DNA from: a virus
Taxonomy: Duplodnaviria > Heunggongvirae > Uroviricota > Caudoviricetes
Reading direction: 5' to 3' (one strand)
Length of the DNA stretch: 16,051 bases
IMG/VR virus record: IMGVR_UViG_2698536480_000003
Part shown: positions 1 to 14,598 of the stretch, one piece after another
Layout: every line of letters starts with the position of its first letter
Position numbering within the stretch: the stretch's first letter is position 1
Translations under genes and position numbers: made by a program
Notes under the pieces: model-generated
Told to the model about the DNA's origin: nothing
What the model saw: only the letters and a program-made list of their open reading frames with translations
Databases searched by the model: none

Positions 1-144
1 TTTTATGACGGCGGCAGAATCATAAAGCACCTCATTACCCTTGCCACCGCCTCGCAGAACGGGCATTCCCTGTTCCTGCCAGTTCTGAATGGTACGGATA
101 CTCGCACCGAAAATGTCAGCCAGCTGCTTTTTGTTGACTTCCAT
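1..144 (-). CDS. nohA: Terminase small subunit (lambda Nu1-like), N-terminal 48 codons only; the gene continues past the window start
   Basis: Minus-strand translation from ATG at 144..142 gives MEVNKKQLADIFGASIRTIQNWQEQGMPVLRGGGKGNEVLYDSAAVIK, recognised from memory as the lambda Nu1 N-terminus. The track ORF 3..209 is in a different frame and is not this gene. Confidence 0.85.
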   Translation of the reverse strand, partial: MEVNKKQLADIFGASIRTIQNWQEQGMPVLRGGGKGNEVLYDSAAVIK

Positions 145-321
145 TGTTCATTCCACGGACAAAAACAGAGAAAGGAAACGACAAAGGCCAAAAAGCCCGC
201 TTTCAGCACCTGTCGTTTCCTTTCTTTTCAGGGGGTATTTTAAATAAAAACATTAAGTTACGACGAAGAAGAACGGAAACACCTTAAACCGGAAAATTTT
301 CATAAATAGCGAAAACCCGCG

Positions 322-333
322 AGGTCGCCGCCC
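322..333. other. cos cohesive-end site (cosN core aggtcgccgccc, reverse complement of the lambda GGGCGGCGACCT end), flanked by cosB-like sequence toward Nu1 and right-end/cosQ-like sequence toward 540
   Basis: The reverse complement of about 145-340 matches the remembered first ~190 nt of the lambda genome, and 334-537 matches the remembered last ~200 nt of lambda in reverse complement. Confidence 0.8.
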
Positions 334-532
334 CGTAACCTGTCGGATCACCGGAAAGGACCCGTAAAGTGATAATGATTATCATTTACATATCACAACG
401 TGCGTGGAGGCCATCAAACCACGTCAAATAATCAATTATGACGCAGGTATCGTATTAATTGATCTGCATCAACTTAACGTAAAAACAACTTCAGACAATA
501 CAAATCAGCGACACTGAATACGGGGCAACCTC

Positions 533-766
533 ATGTCAACGAAGAACAGAACCCGCAGAACAACAACCCGCAACATCCGCTTTCCTAACCAAATGATTGA
601 ACAAATTAACATCGCTCTTGAGCAAAAAGGGTCCGGGAATTTCTCAGCCTGGGTCATTGAAGCCTGCCGCCGGAGACTGTGCTCAGAAAAAAGAGTTTCT
701 TCTGAAGCAAACAAAGAAAAGAGTGACATTACTGAATTGCTCAGAAAACAGGTCAGACCAGATTGA
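533..766 (+). CDS. ynfO: Small basic protein, 77 aa, probably a ribbon-helix-helix-like DNA binder (YnfO family)
   Basis: ATG at 533; N-terminal basic stretch followed by RFPNQMIEQINIALEQ (strand-helix pattern typical of RHH regulators); same position and size as Qin ynfO from memory. Confidence 0.65.
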   Translation: MSTKNRTRRTTTRNIRFPNQMIEQINIALEQKGSGNFSAWVIEACRRRLCSEKRVSSEANKEKSDITELLRKQVRPD

Positions 767-823
767 AGCAATTTAGATAATCGTGCAGACTACGCCCCCT
801 CATATCACATGGAAGGTTTATCT

Positions 824-1240
824 ATGGATCAGGTAGTCATTTTTAAACAAATATTTGATAAAGTTCGAAACGATTTAAACTATCAATGGTTTTATTCTGA
901 GCTAAAACGTCACAATGTCTCACATTACATTTACTATTTAGCCACAGAGAATGTTCATATTGTATTAAAAAATGATAATACAGTGTTATTAAAGGGCCTA
1001 AAAAACATTGTGTCTGTCAAATTTTCAAAGGATAGGCATCTTATAGAAACGACCTCTAATAAGCTGAAATCCAGAGAGATCACATTTCAGGAATACAGAA
1101 GAAACCTTGCTAAAGCAGGAGTTTTCGGTGGGTTACAAATATCCACGAACAAAAAAGATATTACTATACCTTTGATAATTCATTACTATTTACTGAAAGC
1201 ATCCAGAAAACTACACAGATCTTACCACGCTAAACCATAA
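824..1240 (+). CDS. ydfO: DUF1398-family protein (YdfO/YbcV-like), 138 aa from the internal ATG (143 aa from the track start at 809)
   Basis: ORF 809..1240; GGAAGG Shine-Dalgarno 5-6 nt upstream of the ATG at 824 makes that the likelier start; order after ynfO matches Qin. Confidence 0.7.
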
Positions 1241-1384
1241 CGTCCGGCTTCTCTCACTCCTGAGCCGGACTGCATTGGTTTAATAAAAACCATCAACAAT
1301 TGTGATTTAGATATTCGGAACCATTCAAATATAACAAAACCCCGTAAAAACGAGGTTTATGGATAAATTTTATTATTGAATACA

Positions 1385-1558
1385 TCAGATTAAATTAATC
1401 TTGACATCATAGCTTTCAAGACCCGTCATTTTTTCCCGTGCGGTAAACTGAATACTGGTAACTTCTTTCCCGGTCTTTTTCTTAAGTTCAATAATTTTTT
1501 TTGTTATATATTCAGAAATATCTGCTTCTGCTTTTGTTTTTAAGTTTTCAATATTCAT
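1385..1558 (-). CDS. gnsB: GnsB (Gns family, secG-suppressor/unsaturated fatty-acid phenotype), 57 aa
   Basis: Hand translation of the minus strand: (M)MNIENLKTKAEADISEYITKKIIELKKKTGKEVTSIQFTAREKMTGLESYDVKINLI*. AGAGGA Shine-Dalgarno upstream. Absent from the ORF track because it is under 60 aa. Confidence 0.85.
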   Translation of the reverse strand: MNIENLKTKAEADISEYITKKIIELKKKTGKEVTSIQFTAREKMTGLESYDVKINLI

Positions 1559-1729
1559 CATTTCCTCTTTTAGTCTGTTATGACTTTCCAGTTACACAGT
1601 AAGTCGATTATATGGTGCAAACGTGTAAAAGATAAGATGAAACATCGCAATAATCAACATACGATAGTCTAAATTTTACACAAACAGACAAAGAGAATTT
1701 TCCTGAATTATCAATGCAATAGCATCAAA

Positions 1730-1885
1730 TCAACTCAAGAGCCTTATTGCTGCTTCCAGAATTTCTTCTGAAGTAACATGTCGATCCGCGGCTACATAAA
1801 TGACTTTATGATCTCCGGTCAGAGATGGAAACCCTGCGGCCATTACAGTAAGGTGTGTTTTTTCGCCATTTGGATATTCACGCAT
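1730..1885 (-). CDS. ynfN: Small protein YnfN-like, 51 aa (MREYPNGEKTHLTVMAAGFPSLTGDHKVIYVAADRHVTSEEILEAAIRLLS)
   Basis: C-terminal part of track ORF 1730..2002. The track start lies inside the cspI terminator hairpin, so an internal ATG (1885, or 1957 for a 75-aa form) is preferred. Size matches my memory of YnfN; start uncertain. Confidence 0.45.
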   Translation of the reverse strand: MREYPNGEKTHLTVMAAGFPSLTGDHKVIYVAADRHVTSEEILEAAIRLLS

Positions 1886-2002
1886 GATGGTGTTAACTCC
1901 AGTCATCGCTGGCACTACCACTGCTGGTTCAGAGTTAAAAAAAACTATGATTTTTTTCATGATGTTACCGTAGTATGTGAGTATCCATCGAATAGACACC
2001 AA

Positions 2003-2026
2003 GCAAAAAAGCTCCCGAAGGAGCCT
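2003..2026 (-). terminator. Rho-independent terminator downstream of cspI (stem gctcc/ggagc, loop cgaa, followed on the minus strand by a T-run)
   Basis: Hairpin at 2011-2024 with A6 at 2005-2010 on the plus strand, which is a U-run after the hairpin on the minus transcript. Confidence 0.6.
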
Positions 2027-2231
2027 TCATTTTCACTTTTTTAAATCCAACGACAGACGGCTGGCATTTAAGTATTGTGAAATATTATCAAATGTAATCA
2101 TCATTGATTTACAAAAGATACATTTTGCCCCGAAAGGATTCATGTCAGAAACATCAAAAGATGATGTTCTATACTGGGAACCATGACAACACGGGCATCT
2201 AAAGTGAATATGGTTTGTAATATTGTCTACC

Positions 2232-2444
2232 TCAAAGCGCCACTACATGAACAGCGGCAGGACCTTTAGGTCCGTTCTCAATACCAAATTCAACTTCCTG
2301 ATTCTCAGTTAATGTTTTGAAATCGTTGCTCTGAATTGCTGAGAAATGGACAAACACATCTTTGCTGCCATCTTTCGGCGTGATGAAACCAAAACCTTTT
2401 TCAGGGTTAAACCATTTCACTAAACCAGTCATTTTGTTAGACAT
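2232..2444 (-). CDS. cspI: Cold-shock protein CspI (CspA family), 70 aa
   Basis: [70 protein letters not shown] with RNP1/RNP2 motifs; csp-type leader upstream (AAAGGUAAUAAUUAUG). Confidence 0.95.
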
Positions 2445-2806
2445 AATTATTACCTTTTGAAGAAATTAGCCCTTGGGCAGAATGGTCCGAAAAAAAATAT
2501 CAGAGAGAAAAACCAACAAGGAAATCTCAAGAGGTACAAATAATAAAATTATAACAATGACTGCTTCAGATAAATTTGTAACAAACCAGAACACCATTAA
2601 CGCATGATTAACCACCCATAGCAAGGATTACTTTTGTAAAGAAAAACACAGCAATGAAAGAATAGCTTTATTTATTAATAAAACGTGTCATTCTGATTAA
2701 GACCTTTTATCTTACCCTTAAGATTTCAGGAATTTTGGCTCATGGAAGAGTCCTTTTTATTTAAATTTTACATTCCGCGATGTAAATGTTCCGATTTAAT
2801 ATTACC

Positions 2807-3830
<1,024 letters not shown>

Positions 3831-4836: not shown

Positions 4837-5115
4837 GATTGTGGTGCTTTTTGTGGGAGTCATCCACTTACGCACTTTGTTTTGCCATGCCAGCAGTTAG
4901 CTTCTGCTGTAAAACTATTCATGCAGCAAACCTGCACTTCACCACAATGGTTAGCATACTTTTCCTGATTAAGATTTTGCCAAATATGCTAGCCATTGTT
5001 TCATGTATTGGACCTCCTTACTTTTTATTAAAGAGATCCAATATTCACTACTCTGTCCGTATCTCTACTCAGGCATCAGCCTTCTTCGTTATCGTATACA
5101 GACGAGCGATGAATT

Positions 5116-5331
5116 TTAATCAGTAATGATGACATTTGCTGCTGCAGGACCTTTAGCACCACTCTCTATAGAGAAGGTAACCTTTTGACCTTCAAATAAG
5201 GTTCGATAATTATCATTCTGAATCGCAGAAAAATGCACAAACACATCTTTACTACCATCAACAGGAGAAATAAAGCCGAAACCTTTATCAGCGTTAAACC
5301 ATTTTACTAAACCAGTCATTTTATTTGACAT
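5116..5331 (-). CDS. cspB: Cold-shock protein CspB (CspA family), 71 aa
   Basis: [71 protein letters not shown]; long leader upstream with cold-box-like and GCCGAAAGGC elements. Confidence 0.95.
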
Positions 5332-5631
5332 TCTACATTCCTTAACTTGAGCCTTTCGGCATAAATGGTTTGCATAACAGAAACGACTTCGTACTTAATT
5401 GGAGAGACTCAAAGAAGGAATAAGTGAATAACACCTGAAATGAGAACTGCTTTAGTAAACTACTTCGTATATCGTCTGTTCTTCAAACCGACGCAATCAT
5501 TAACGCATAGTTGAACATATGAAGCAATGTTTATTTTAGACATCCAGCCATCTTCAACCCCATCAAAAAACTATAGCTTTCTTCAGGAACGTGTGTATAG
5601 TGCGCCAAGTTATCAGTATTAAGGAATTTTT

Positions 5632-10801: not shown

Positions 10802-12444
10802 CATTACGCGCACCGCCCAGACTGACTCAGCGCGTTTCTGGCATATCCCCGGTAAAACAAGTAACAAACCACCCGAAAATGAACACCAGAAACGCGACTT
10901 AAGAATCTACCCTATGAATGGATATGCACTCAACCGAATCGATCTTGGTTTCAATCTTTTTTATCGGGATCAGGCTTCTTTTTAGGTAACTTCGGGGGCT
11001 TAACTTGCTGATGACTTTGCGTTCGGCGCGTAAGCCAGGGATGGTCAGCTTTAGGTTTAACATAGTATTTTGAGCGTAAATCAATACGGGCATTATCCAC
11101 TCGTTCATGGACACTCTTTTCATCATCCAGTGGTATAGGCTCCGGGCCATCAACATACTTTTCCCAGCCCAGCGCTTTCCCGTCATACAGAACGTTAATT
11201 TCACCGTCAAAGTTCTCGCATACAGTAACAACCGAATGCCTAAGTCGATATCCCCGGCCCTCACTGCGTACCTGAAACGCACTGCTTTTGTACTGGAAAG
11301 TGAGATTTTTAGACAGAACGCGCTTCGCCTGTAGGCTGAAGATATAACCCAGTTCCTCTTCAGAATGGTGCACATCAAGATGAGCATTATCAGTAGTACG
11401 AGGCGACGTAGCGAACCGGTTGTTATAGGCTTCAATAAAGGTCGGCAACCATGCATTTGCTGTTTCAATATCACTGATATTCTGAAGCCGCATTTCTTTG
11501 ACCAGCCTGTCCTGTAGTGTCTGATTGGCGCGCTCTACCCGCCCTTTTGCCTGCGGGCTGTTGGCATGGATTGGCTCGATGCCCAGTGTCTTTATCGCAC
11601 GAGTGAACTGGGTCAGCTCACCTTCCCGCTCTGGGTTATTTACCCTGAATATACTGTGTCTATCAGAGTAGAGAGCGAGCGGTACGCCATGATCATTAAG
11701 GTAACCCCGGAGGGTTTCCATGTAAGCCCGGGTTGTTTCAGCAGGCACAAAACGCAACGCCATCAACGCACTGGTGGCATCATCAATGAAAACGATCAGT
11801 GTACATCTGGGGCCTCGATTTTCAAACCAGTCATGAGGTGAGCCATCAATCTGGATCAGTTCACCGTAAGATGGTCGTCGCATGCGGCGTTGATATATAC
11901 GGGCAATTTTACGACGGCGTTCACGCCATAACCCCTCTTCTATCATCCACTTTCTGAGAGTTTCAACGGATAAAGATAAACCGTGTATCTCGCGCAATTT
12001 TTCGCACGCAAACGTAGGTCCAAAATCAGCGTAACGGCCTTTGAGGAGTGAAATTACTGTTGCTCTGAATTCAGTAGAAAAGGAATTATTAGGACGCTTT
12101 CCACGTCGGTGGGAAACCAGACCAGAAGGCCCTTCATTTCTATACCGTTGCACCAGACGTTTAACCTGCCGAATAGAAATGCCAATGCGTGCCGCAGCTT
12201 GTTCCTGAATAATCTGAAGTCGGTGGAGTTCCTTATGACTCATCGTAACAGTCTCTTTGATCATGAAAAATCCCCCAGAGAATTGTCTGGGGACATTTTA
12301 GAATGGTTCAAAGGGGACATTACAGCTTGGTGTTAACAATAGCCTGCTTCTCCGTGCCTTTCGGCACGTAAGAGGCTAACCTACATGTGTCTAGCATGAA
12401 ATTGGCCTCAGATTAATGTTAAGCGTCTTGCAGGACGCGTAATG
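10802..12444 (-). mobile_element. Insertion sequence, about 1.64 kb, carrying a single DDE transposase; ends proposed from imperfect terminal inverted repeats (cattacgcg...)
   Basis: 10802-10826 (cattacgcgcaccgcccagac) versus the reverse complement of 12420-12444 (cattacgcgtcctgcaagac): 9 of 9 at the tip, then partial. No clean target-site duplication found, so the exact boundaries are uncertain. Confidence 0.4.
10951..12264 (-). CDS. DDE transposase with N-terminal helix-turn-helix and rve (integrase-core) domain, 437 aa; IS481/ISNCY(IS1202-group)-like
   Basis: N-terminus ELHRLQIIQEQAAARIGISIRQVKRLVQRYRNEGPSGLVSHRRGKRP; catalytic-core-like IQIDGSPHDW ... FIDDATSA ... ANSPQAKGRVER (D, D, E). 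Exact IS family not determined. Confidence 0.8.
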   Translation of the reverse strand: MIKETVTMSHKELHRLQIIQEQAAARIGISIRQVKRLVQRYRNEGPSGLVSHRRGKRPNNSFSTEFRATVISLLKGRYADFGPTFACEKLREIHGLSLSVETLRKWMIEEGLWRERRRKIARIYQRRMRRPSYGELIQIDGSPHDWFENRGPRCTLIVFIDDATSALMALRFVPAETTRAYMETLRGYLNDHGVPLALYSDRHSIFRVNNPEREGELTQFTRAIKTLGIEPIHANSPQAKGRVERANQTLQDRLVKEMRLQNISDIETANAWLPTFIEAYNNRFATSPRTTDNAHLDVHHSEEELGYIFSLQAKRVLSKNLTFQYKSSAFQVRSEGRGYRLRHSVVTVCENFDGEINVLYDGKALGWEKYVDGPEPIPLDDEKSVHERVDNARIDLRSKYYVKPKADHPWLTRRTQSHQQVKPPKLPKKKPDPDKKD

Positions 12445-12598
12445 TTAACTGGGGCTTTTCTCTATCTGCCGTTGGTGTCCATGCCCGAGGCAGATAGCCT
12501 CAAGCGCCCGCAGTCATTCTACTTAACTAAGATTTCCCCGCAAACCGTTTTTGTCCAGCACAGTAAATATCCAACTAAACCAATGGAGTTCGCTGTAT

Positions 12599-12778: not shown

Positions 12779-13032
12779 TATTCCTCCTACAATCAATGTG
12801 CAATTACATTTAAACACACCTCAATTTGGCCGGACATATAAATATCTAAACCAGAAAAAATCACTTACATAGCGTTACAAACTCTTTAGTCTAAAGGTTC
12901 ATCGTAAAACATTCCCCATACTTATCAGTCCGTTCCGCGCCAGGTAGCTCATTGCCTTATCTGGCAACCTGTAATCAGGTTTCCGCTTTTTCAGTTGGCT
13001 GGTCGTTTAACCGACATAGTTAATCCATTAAT

Positions 13033-13320
13033 CTAGTTGCCGGATGTTGGTGGATTTTCGCGTTTTAGTTGTTCATAAAAGTGCACAGCTTTAACCAGTT
13101 CTTCTGATGTAACTGGGACTGGTGAGGCAGTGAATAAGGCCTGAATTTGATAGTTCGGCCTGTCGTTACAATCCTCTTTTTTCGGTACATATTTCCAGTC
13201 ACCAGACCACTACTTCCCCTGAAAGTCCGTAACGCCTTTTTTCACGTAGCGATATCGCCATGCCACTGGTTTTGCTTGCCCCGCCGTTTCATGCCCTTCC
13301 TGATAATTAATCTCGCTCAT
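13033..13320 (-). pseudogene. Accessory ORF of about 95 codons interrupted by a single in-frame TAG (at 13210-13212)
   Basis: MSEINYQEGHETAGQAKPVAWRYRYVKKGVTDFQGK*WSGDWKYVPKKEDCNDRPNYQIQALFTASPVPVTSEELVKAVHFYEQLKRENPPTSGN*; the frame is intact on both sides of the TAG. Confidence 0.4.
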
Positions 13321-13382
13321 TCATCGCCCCACTCATCACAATATGCTTCGACCGGAGTTTTTCCCGCTTCATAGTCATCACG

Positions 13383-13508
13383 CTAGGATTCGACATCAGC
13401 AGCACTTCCACCGCGTAACTCACCATAGTCCATTAATAGTTCATCCCGCTCTTCAAAACTGATGTTATATTTAGCTGAACAAAAATCAGCCACTTTGTTC
13501 TTCCTCAT
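13383..13508 (-). CDS. Candidate small protein, 41 aa (MRKNKVADFCSAKYNISFEERDELLMDYGELRGGSAADVES)
   Basis: ATG-initiated minus-strand ORF read by hand; in tandem with the neighbouring small ORFs; no family recognised. Confidence 0.25.
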   Translation of the reverse strand: MRKNKVADFCSAKYNISFEERDELLMDYGELRGGSAADVES

Positions 13509-13557
13509 CGTCTTTTATTTCGTGGTATGAGTAATTGCAGTAGTTAAAGAAAATTTC

Positions 13558-13668
13558 TTATGCTCCGTCATGAATTTCCTCAGGTGTTGCGTCATCGTCC
13601 ACTTCGAATACATCCTCAAAATCTCCACCAGCTATTCCCGTTTCAATAATAATTTTGAACTTTCGCAT
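13558..13668 (-). CDS. Candidate small acidic protein, 36 aa (MRKFKIIIETGIAGGDFEDVFEVDDDATPEEIHDGA)
   Basis: ATG-initiated minus-strand ORF with GGAGG and a GC hairpin (gccgccc/gggcggc) upstream; no family recognised. Confidence 0.25.
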   Translation of the reverse strand: MRKFKIIIETGIAGGDFEDVFEVDDDATPEEIHDGA

Positions 13669-13840
13669 TTCACTACCGCCCTTTCGGGCGGCCTCCTGAT
13701 GTTCTGAGGGTGCAGAAATCCATCCGGTTAAGGATTAAATTTTATTTACAGAACTGAATTTAATTATTCAGATATACGTATCTGTAGCCTTACGAATCTA
13801 CTCACTGGATGCCTCTTTCATAAAAATAATCCAGTGGGTT

Positions 13841-14287
13841 TTATCGTTTTTTCCCTGTTCGTTGACAGATAACAGGTTTTCTGTCTGTCAGTGCCAGAAT
13901 CTGGCTTACCGGTATTTGCGTTTCATTCCATTAAAAAATCAGAACGCCGTGCGGCCTCAACACCCGAAAGGCTTCTTTAAATCTCTGTCGCGAATCATCA
14001 CGCCAGGCATCTTTATTCAGCCGTCCATATTTCTTTCCCATCCAGGCGTTATCACCAACACTCTCAAGATGCGGAGGGTCTAATACAACCATCGAAAAAG
14101 ATGCGTCTGCAAATGATAATGCACGAAAATCTGCGATAATGTCAGGGCTGATAATCAAGCGTCTCCCATTGCGTAATGTGTATCCTTCTTTTCTGATATC
14201 GCTGAATATCGCCCGTTCGTCAGACTTATCGAACCAGAACATGCGGCTGCCACAGCACATATCAAGAATGGTTGCCGGTGCACTCAC
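13841..14287 (-). pseudogene. Small SAM-dependent methyltransferase (motif I LDMCCGS followed by DPPH, RsmD/gamma-like order), about 150 codons, interrupted by one in-frame TAA at 13931-13933
   Basis: Track ORF 13931..14287 (118 aa) ends ...RPHGVLIF*, and the same frame continues WNETQIPVSQILALTDRKPVICQRTGKKR* to 13841. Start is GTG overlapping the upstream ORF stop (GTGA). Confidence 0.55.
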
Positions 14288-14454
14288 TGCGCCACGTCCT
14301 GAAAATTACCCTGATAGAAAGCCAGTATGCGCTGCATAACTTCGCTCTTCCGGCACTCGCGACAGATTATGTTTAGGCGACTGTCGTAGCGACGTATTTC
14401 TCCGTCAGGTGATGACCAGATAAGGTCCGGATCAACCACAGCAGGTTTCTTCAC
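14284..14454 (-). CDS. Candidate 56-aa protein translationally coupled to the methyltransferase (GTG start; VKKPAVVDPDLIWSSPDGEIRRYDSRLNIICRECRKSEVMQRILAFYQGNFQDVAQ)
   Basis: GAGGG 5 nt upstream of the GTG at 14454; its TGA stop overlaps the methyltransferase GTG start. The open frame extends further upstream without a standard start codon. Confidence 0.35.
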   Translation of the reverse strand: MKKPAVVDPDLIWSSPDGEIRRYDSRLNIICRECRKSEVMQRILAFYQGNFQDVAQ

Positions 14455-14598
14455 CTTTGCCCTCGAGAGTTTTTTGCGGGCGTTTTGCCAGTCCTTACGC
14501 GCCTGTTCAGAGGGGAATAACCCGTATCCGAAGAGCAGTTAATTGCGCTGAAAGGAATAAAAAAAGGTACGTTAAAAAAGGCCCGGGAAAAATCGTTT

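Follow-up and report, generated by a model that had tools for sequence, protein, structure and literature searches.

Disabling lesions in four adjacent genes of the defective Escherichia coli prophage Qin are consistent with ordinary decay

Four consecutive genes of the cryptic lambdoid prophage Qin (Kim), as found in non-K-12 Escherichia coli, are interrupted by five nonsense codons, two frameshifts, and one 90-nt deletion within 1.39 kb; these lesions very probably reflect ordinary decay, in a defective element, of accessory genes that are dispensable. The genes—a small phage DNA methyltransferase (phrog_954), a DUF7167 gene (phrog_1997), a 58-codon gene designated orf58 (phrog_519), and a gene assigned to phrog_660—all lie on the minus strand of the window, by which we mean the whole 16,051-nt stretch of DNA that was analysed (IMG/VR record IMGVR_UViG_2698536480_000003); the features described below are on that strand as well. 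The nonsense codons comprise two AAA>TAA changes, one TGG>TAG, and two CAG>TAG. An earlier note on this DNA had described two broken genes, the methyltransferase and the phrog_660 gene. Both are indeed broken, but DUF7167 and orf58, which lie between them, are broken too and had been missed. The stops appear to be tolerated because the genes are needed by neither the host nor the element, and nothing indicates a role for the stops themselves.

The match that identifies the window as Qin spans nohA to intQ and adjoins rspB, and the corresponding element in MG1655 is annotated under the name 'cryptic prophage Qin'. Matching genomes carry nohA, cspI/B/F, rrrQ, ydfT (Q-like), ydfU, rem, hokD, relBE, flxA, and ydfW on one flank, and dicC/dicA/dicB, xis, and int on the other. 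Two Rfam matches to the cspA thermoregulator (2205-2590 and 5100-5492), upstream of cspI and cspB, are as expected for Qin. Replication-type genes (O-like, DUF977/LygF) precede the four broken genes, which are followed by an ISNCY transposase remnant and by ydfT, the homologue of the Q antiterminator; from this gene order, we infer that the block is the nin-like, accessory part of the lambdoid early rightward operon. At least 80% of the block is present in approximately 376 of 5,426 complete E. coli genomes (~7%). In K-12, the block is deleted, leaving the gene order ydfW-ydfX-dicC, so that the four broken genes are visible only in fuller versions of Qin.

Hundreds of complete E. coli genomes, including ATCC 8739, W, IAI39, 042, and CE10, which we take to represent several phylogroups, share the 1.6 kb surrounding the stops at 100% identity. 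Recurrence of the same bases in hundreds of independent complete genomes bears out the view of the earlier note that the stops are not sequencing artefacts. A sequencing or assembly error, or alternatively a variant genetic code, is extremely improbable as an explanation for the stops. Elsewhere in the window, 18 intact genes are free of internal stops and end in TAA (10), TGA (7), or TAG (1); since TAA and TAG terminate normal genes here, the standard genetic code applies, as befits an E. coli host, and a variant code was ruled out. Across these phylogroups, the dead block at 12900-14500 is identical, and thus more uniform than expected of vertically inherited neutral DNA. This uniformity suggests a recent recombinational spread of one Qin haplotype.

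The methyltransferase pseudogene (13798..14287) was delimited by annotation and by DNA alignment to intact homologues (L011, L007, and L012). Its frame starts at a GTG (14287) and reads ...RPHGVLIF-TAA(13933-13931)-WNETQIPVSQIL..., with the TAA at codon 119 (13931..13933) replacing, by an A>T transversion, the AAA (Lys) of the motif LIFKWNE. The AAA is present in all three of the intact methyltransferases (157-175 aa; one from an Stx2c phage and two from E. coli prophages). Intact homologues continue ...GKNDKTHWIIFMKE and end at a position equivalent to 13800-13798 in window coordinates; as they run through the TAA at 13933-13931, this stop is premature. The gene also contains a second lesion, 26 codons past the TAA: a +1 G frameshift (13853..13855; GGG, as compared with GG in intact homologues), after which the frame terminates at a TAA at 13843-13841. 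An intact methyltransferase homologue matches phrog_954, annotated 'DNA methyltransferase', with an E value of 3e-88 over profile positions 47-206. The copy in the window, by comparison, has no full-length phrog_954 match, stops after 118 of approximately 160-175 residues, and is frameshifted beyond; judged from these alignments, it is a pseudogene of phrog_954 and not a working member. Searches against Pfam returned generic methyltransferase matches only, all below threshold, while NCBIfam returned no match and a sequence search found no solved relative.

The 118-residue stump retains the N-terminal two thirds of the methyltransferase, including the DPPH motif, and is presumably inactive, as the last third of the protein is missing. 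In most strains, RefSeq nonetheless lists codons 1-118 (13931-14287) under the accession WP_001310834.1, as though they made up an intact 'class I SAM-dependent methyltransferase', whereas the gene is flagged 'frameshifted; internal stop' in strains E105 and BL12. The annotation of WP_001310834.1 as an intact enzyme is an annotation artefact, and RefSeq is inconsistent between strains in this respect.

The phrog_660 pseudogene (12899..13320), which encodes a protein of a family with no known function, is likewise flagged 'frameshifted; internal stop' in RefSeq. Its frame begins at an ATG (13320) and reads ...DFQGK-TAG(13212-13210)-WSGDWKYVPKK...; the TAG at codon 37 (13210-13212) replaces a CAG, CCG, or CTG of intact homologues, and is premature given that homologues run through it. 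Alignment to a full-length 171-aa homologue reveals further damage downstream. A 90-nt in-frame deletion (junction at ~13042-13056) falls between two near-identical AATCC(A/G)CCA motifs of the 171-aa relative; a second TAG (13033-13035) replaces a CAG; and a 4-nt deletion occurs near 13003, the true end of the gene being at 12901-12899. No Pfam or NCBIfam match was obtained for this gene, for which phrog_660 is the sole match. The earlier description of it as 'ea-like' finds no support, as no Ea-family match (Ea22, Ead, Ea8.5, and similar) was recovered.

These alignments confirm much of the earlier note with respect to the stops themselves: both occur at the positions and in the minus-strand frames that it gave (TAA 13933-13931 and TAG 13212-13210), both are nonsense substitutions of sense codons, and the intact homologues continue past them, such that the proteins do not naturally end there. 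The accompanying picture of otherwise clean genes does not survive. The note had counted exactly one stop per gene, having taken the second TAG of the phrog_660 gene (13035-13033) as its natural end; it had described both genes as otherwise open for their full length, though the methyltransferase frame closes early at 13843-13841 and the phrog_660 gene has lost 90 nt; and it had reported no frameshifts, of which each of the two genes contains one (the +1 G and the 4-nt deletion, respectively).

The codon-37 TAG of the phrog_660 gene is observed in 40 of the 79 loci carrying this gene, and 35 of these loci are outside the five known Qin copies. A run of adenines upstream of the codon has 6, 7, or 8 bases in TAG alleles. 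This run has 6 bases in 34 of 37 alleles with a sense codon, while the other three (TGG) have 8 and are themselves frameshifted. An origin of the TAG as a by-product of a homopolymer frameshift, a possibility raised by the many relatives with eight adenines upstream and an 85-codon ORF in another frame, was rejected because all intact-frame alleles use the frame given in the earlier note, six adenines, and a sense codon 37; the length of the run varies only in broken alleles. In many non-Qin prophages (loci L004, L010, L035, and others), a TAG allele with two extra adenines upstream opens an 85-codon, Arg/Lys-rich ORF. This ORF, annotated as a hypothetical protein, is probably a chance reading frame within a pseudogene. 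Polymorphism among TAG-bearing alleles amounts to 11 nonsynonymous and 4 synonymous changes, near the neutral expectation. On these allele comparisons, the TAG allele is a dead, drifting one that is passed among lambdoid prophages by recombination, together with the rest of a module that was already dead.

The two genes between the methyltransferase and the phrog_660 gene show a simpler pattern. The DUF7167 pseudogene (13486..13668; 60 codons), whose intact homologue matches Pfam DUF7167 with an E value of 8e-15, carries a premature TAA at codon 37 (13558-13560) in place of AAA (Lys) and is annotated with an 'internal stop' in RefSeq. The orf58 pseudogene (13317..13493; 58 codons), identified by its match to phrog_519 (function not known) and by alignment to homologues, carries a premature TAG at codon 37 (13383-13385) in place of TGG (Trp); in addition, Qin has GTG as its start codon in place of ATG. 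Each of the two genes has one disabling lesion, and the frames downstream of the stops are intact. Among 83 further loci carrying both genes, 80 of them from IMG/VR, the AAA of DUF7167 and the TGG of orf58 are present in all 83; the two stops are observed only in the five Qin copies.

A hairpin rich in G and C and closed by a GAAA loop (GCCGCCC-GAAA-GGGCGG; 13666-13696) separates an AGGAGG motif from the ATG of DUF7167. The surrounding 58 nt have a predicted folding energy of −17.4 kcal/mol (z = −2.1), and the motif is kept in related prophages. By folding, the hairpin may place a remote Shine-Dalgarno sequence near the DUF7167 start codon, an arrangement for which gene 38 of phage T4 is a described case.

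The surroundings of the block are also decayed. On its upstream side is a C-terminal fragment of a DUF977 (LygF/Ren-like) gene (14284..14530), delimited by annotation and by blastn of the window against loci L001 and L003. This fragment is joined to a 5'-truncated excisionase (xis) gene by a deletion whose junction (14524-14530) shows a 7-base overlap; relative to ATCC 8739, the sequence removed includes the O-like gene, a ydaT-like gene, dicC, dicA, dicB, and an exonuclease gene, and as a consequence the four genes are without their upstream promoter region in the window. None of the 12 top genome matches listed is collinear across this junction, and a promoter and terminator scan of the block found promoter-like sites no more often than by chance. 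In O157:H16 98-3133 and E105, other rearrangements set in at nearly the same DUF977 position, suggesting that this breakpoint is a recurrent one. Beyond the downstream end of the block, Rfam gives a sok match (102 bits) over 12338-12509. Homology to intact hok/sok-type loci of related prophages gives way at 12339 to the ISNCY transposase remnant, so that the hok-like toxin ORF is cut off and only the leader/sok part is left. The element as a whole is defective, with IS remnants, truncated genes, and deletions, and its regulatory and replication region is absent from the window.

If the block is transcribed, translation would end early in each gene, giving fragments of 118, 36, 36, and 36 residues. 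The earlier note had raised translational read-through as a possible way around the stops. In the methyltransferase and phrog_660 genes, further lesions interrupt the frames beyond the stops, and read-through therefore cannot rescue either; the near-neutral 11:4 ratio among phrog_660 TAG alleles likewise speaks against it, and the window contains no tRNA gene and hence no suppressor tRNA. The intact downstream frames of DUF7167 and orf58 leave room for a narrower proposal, in which their stops act as leaky attenuators and low read-through keeps both genes expressed at a reduced level. The stop contexts are UAA-U in the methyltransferase and UAA-G in DUF7167, both of which would be efficient stop signals in E. 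coli termination; the latter weighs against leakage in DUF7167. Attenuation of this kind would fit the single lesion in each gene, the perfect conservation of the stops, and dN/dS values of 0.10-0.18 against intact homologues, and a precedent has been published: many conserved in-frame stops in bacteria have been proposed to be read through, since dN/dS stays below 1 (Belinky et al., 2021; PMC7918605). However, dN/dS was measured here against intact relatives, so that low values mostly reflect evolution before the stops arose, and polymorphism within Qin in DUF7167 and orf58 is confined to three changes, two nonsynonymous and one synonymous. The weakened GTG start of orf58, the loss of the upstream promoter region in the window, the lack of a suppressor tRNA there, and the presence of two flanking genes beyond rescue also count against leaky stops, which we consider very unlikely.

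The lesions are not of recent origin, contrary to what the earlier note had suggested. The Qin alleles of E105 and BL12, which are approximately 1% diverged, carry every lesion, and the BL12 allele has two additional 1-bp deletions in the phrog_660 gene. A repaired query of 850 nt, with four stops and the frameshift restored, was searched against the 5,426 complete E. coli genomes; its best match was the broken allele itself, at 99.4% (5 differences in 850 nt), and no allele of the Qin haplotype with any lesion reverted was found among these genomes. The sharing of lesions by diverged Qin alleles, together with the lack of a reverted allele, indicates that inactivation is not recent, and the occurrence of the phrog_660 TAG at 35 non-Qin loci is similarly at odds with a recent event. 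All four genes were very probably inactivated before the present E. coli Qin alleles diverged. Values of dN/dS between broken genes and intact relatives are 0.10-0.25, as compared with 0.12 between two intact methyltransferases; because these values are low against intact homologues, most of the divergence predates inactivation, and the neutral phase looks short. Across the whole block, polymorphism among Qin alleles comprises 6 nonsynonymous and 7 synonymous changes, a ratio not clearly neutral, though only three diverged alleles contribute and several sites look like retained or imported ancestral states.

Several features of the block count against plain decay. Of all random single substitutions in the four genes, 3.5-6% would be nonsense changes, and 17-56 sites separate each broken Qin gene from its closest intact relative. 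A rough estimate from the nonsynonymous excess gives approximately 1-1.5 expected stops in the four genes, as compared with 4-5 observed; this excess, approached from dN/dS and from Qin-unique sites, is modest, non-significant, and dependent on rough assumptions. All eight lesions fall in the distal 1.39 kb, while the genes of the upstream ~2.1 kb are undamaged in ATCC 8739. Furthermore, the DUF7167, orf58, and phrog_660 genes all have their first stop at codon 37, the spacings between these stops being 173 and 175 nt; agreement of the codon number in all three genes would have a probability of approximately 1e-4, although this was judged post hoc. The three codon-37 mutations differ in type and age and so are not one event. 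With no mechanism found, the pattern is treated here as a coincidence. That the stops are non-random in some sense, whether through selected early termination (e.g., polarity), low read-through of DUF7167 and orf58, or a process setting stops at a constant distance from start codons, is in our estimation very unlikely.

Selection for inactivation, as part of prophage domestication, could account for such a clustering, either because the gene products were costly or because premature termination led to Rho-dependent polarity, which would stop early rightward transcripts short of the hok-like gene, the Q homologue, and the lysis genes further on. A stop in each of four adjacent genes stands out against the low background of changes (dN/dS 0.10-0.25); the lesions are restricted to the block, with upstream genes and the 18 other window genes intact, and they are fixed in all Qin alleles examined. 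Yet the excess over the neutral expectation is modest even on these rough estimates, and the mutations are of mixed types and different times, with the phrog_660 TAG present in other prophages and the other stops confined to Qin. As would be expected of plain decay, the stops come together with frameshifts and deletions, and the operon had already been cut by IS insertions and deletions. Other E. coli prophages commonly carry the methyltransferase, DUF7167, and orf58 genes in intact form, which argues that their products are not generally harmful. The specific suggestion of the earlier note, that a toxic methyltransferase had been selected against, finds no support, given that intact copies are annotated in prophages of O157:H7 and other strains and that three neighbours that are not methyltransferases are broken as well. 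Selected inactivation is thus a very unlikely account of the block, and ordinary decay of dispensable genes remains the preferred one.

Decay of Qin is well established: pseudogenes such as intQ and ydfE are known in K-12, and the prophage has been treated in an analysis of 'grounded' prophages (PMC6379469), in which the four genes described here are not mentioned. The window and the Qin of K-12 represent the same element, at the same site by rspB and with shared flanking genes, and both have decayed by point mutation, IS insertion, and deletion; they differ in that the K-12 version lacks the block. The block itself resembles the nin-like or 'moron' modules of lambdoid phages, which likewise consist of small, tightly packed or overlapping genes between the replication genes and Q, in varied combinations. 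Such accessory modules are exchanged as mosaics; in Qin, by contrast, the module is dead, and one dead allele, the phrog_660 TAG, is itself exchanged. The Qin stops are also comparable to those surveyed by Belinky et al. (2021; PMC7918605) in being perfectly conserved across many genomes, but unlike the proposed read-through stops of that study, they are followed by broken frames in two of the four genes, and the phrog_660 TAG alleles drift neutrally.

Qin is a well-known cryptic prophage and most of the four genes are already flagged as pseudogenes in RefSeq, and the finding carries little biological weight. It serves as a worked example of a cryptic prophage losing dispensable accessory genes, and of a dead allele handed between lambdoid prophages by recombination. 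It also illustrates that the conservation of an in-frame stop in hundreds of genomes is not, by itself, a sign of read-through or function; here, it reflects one haplotype carried by many strains.
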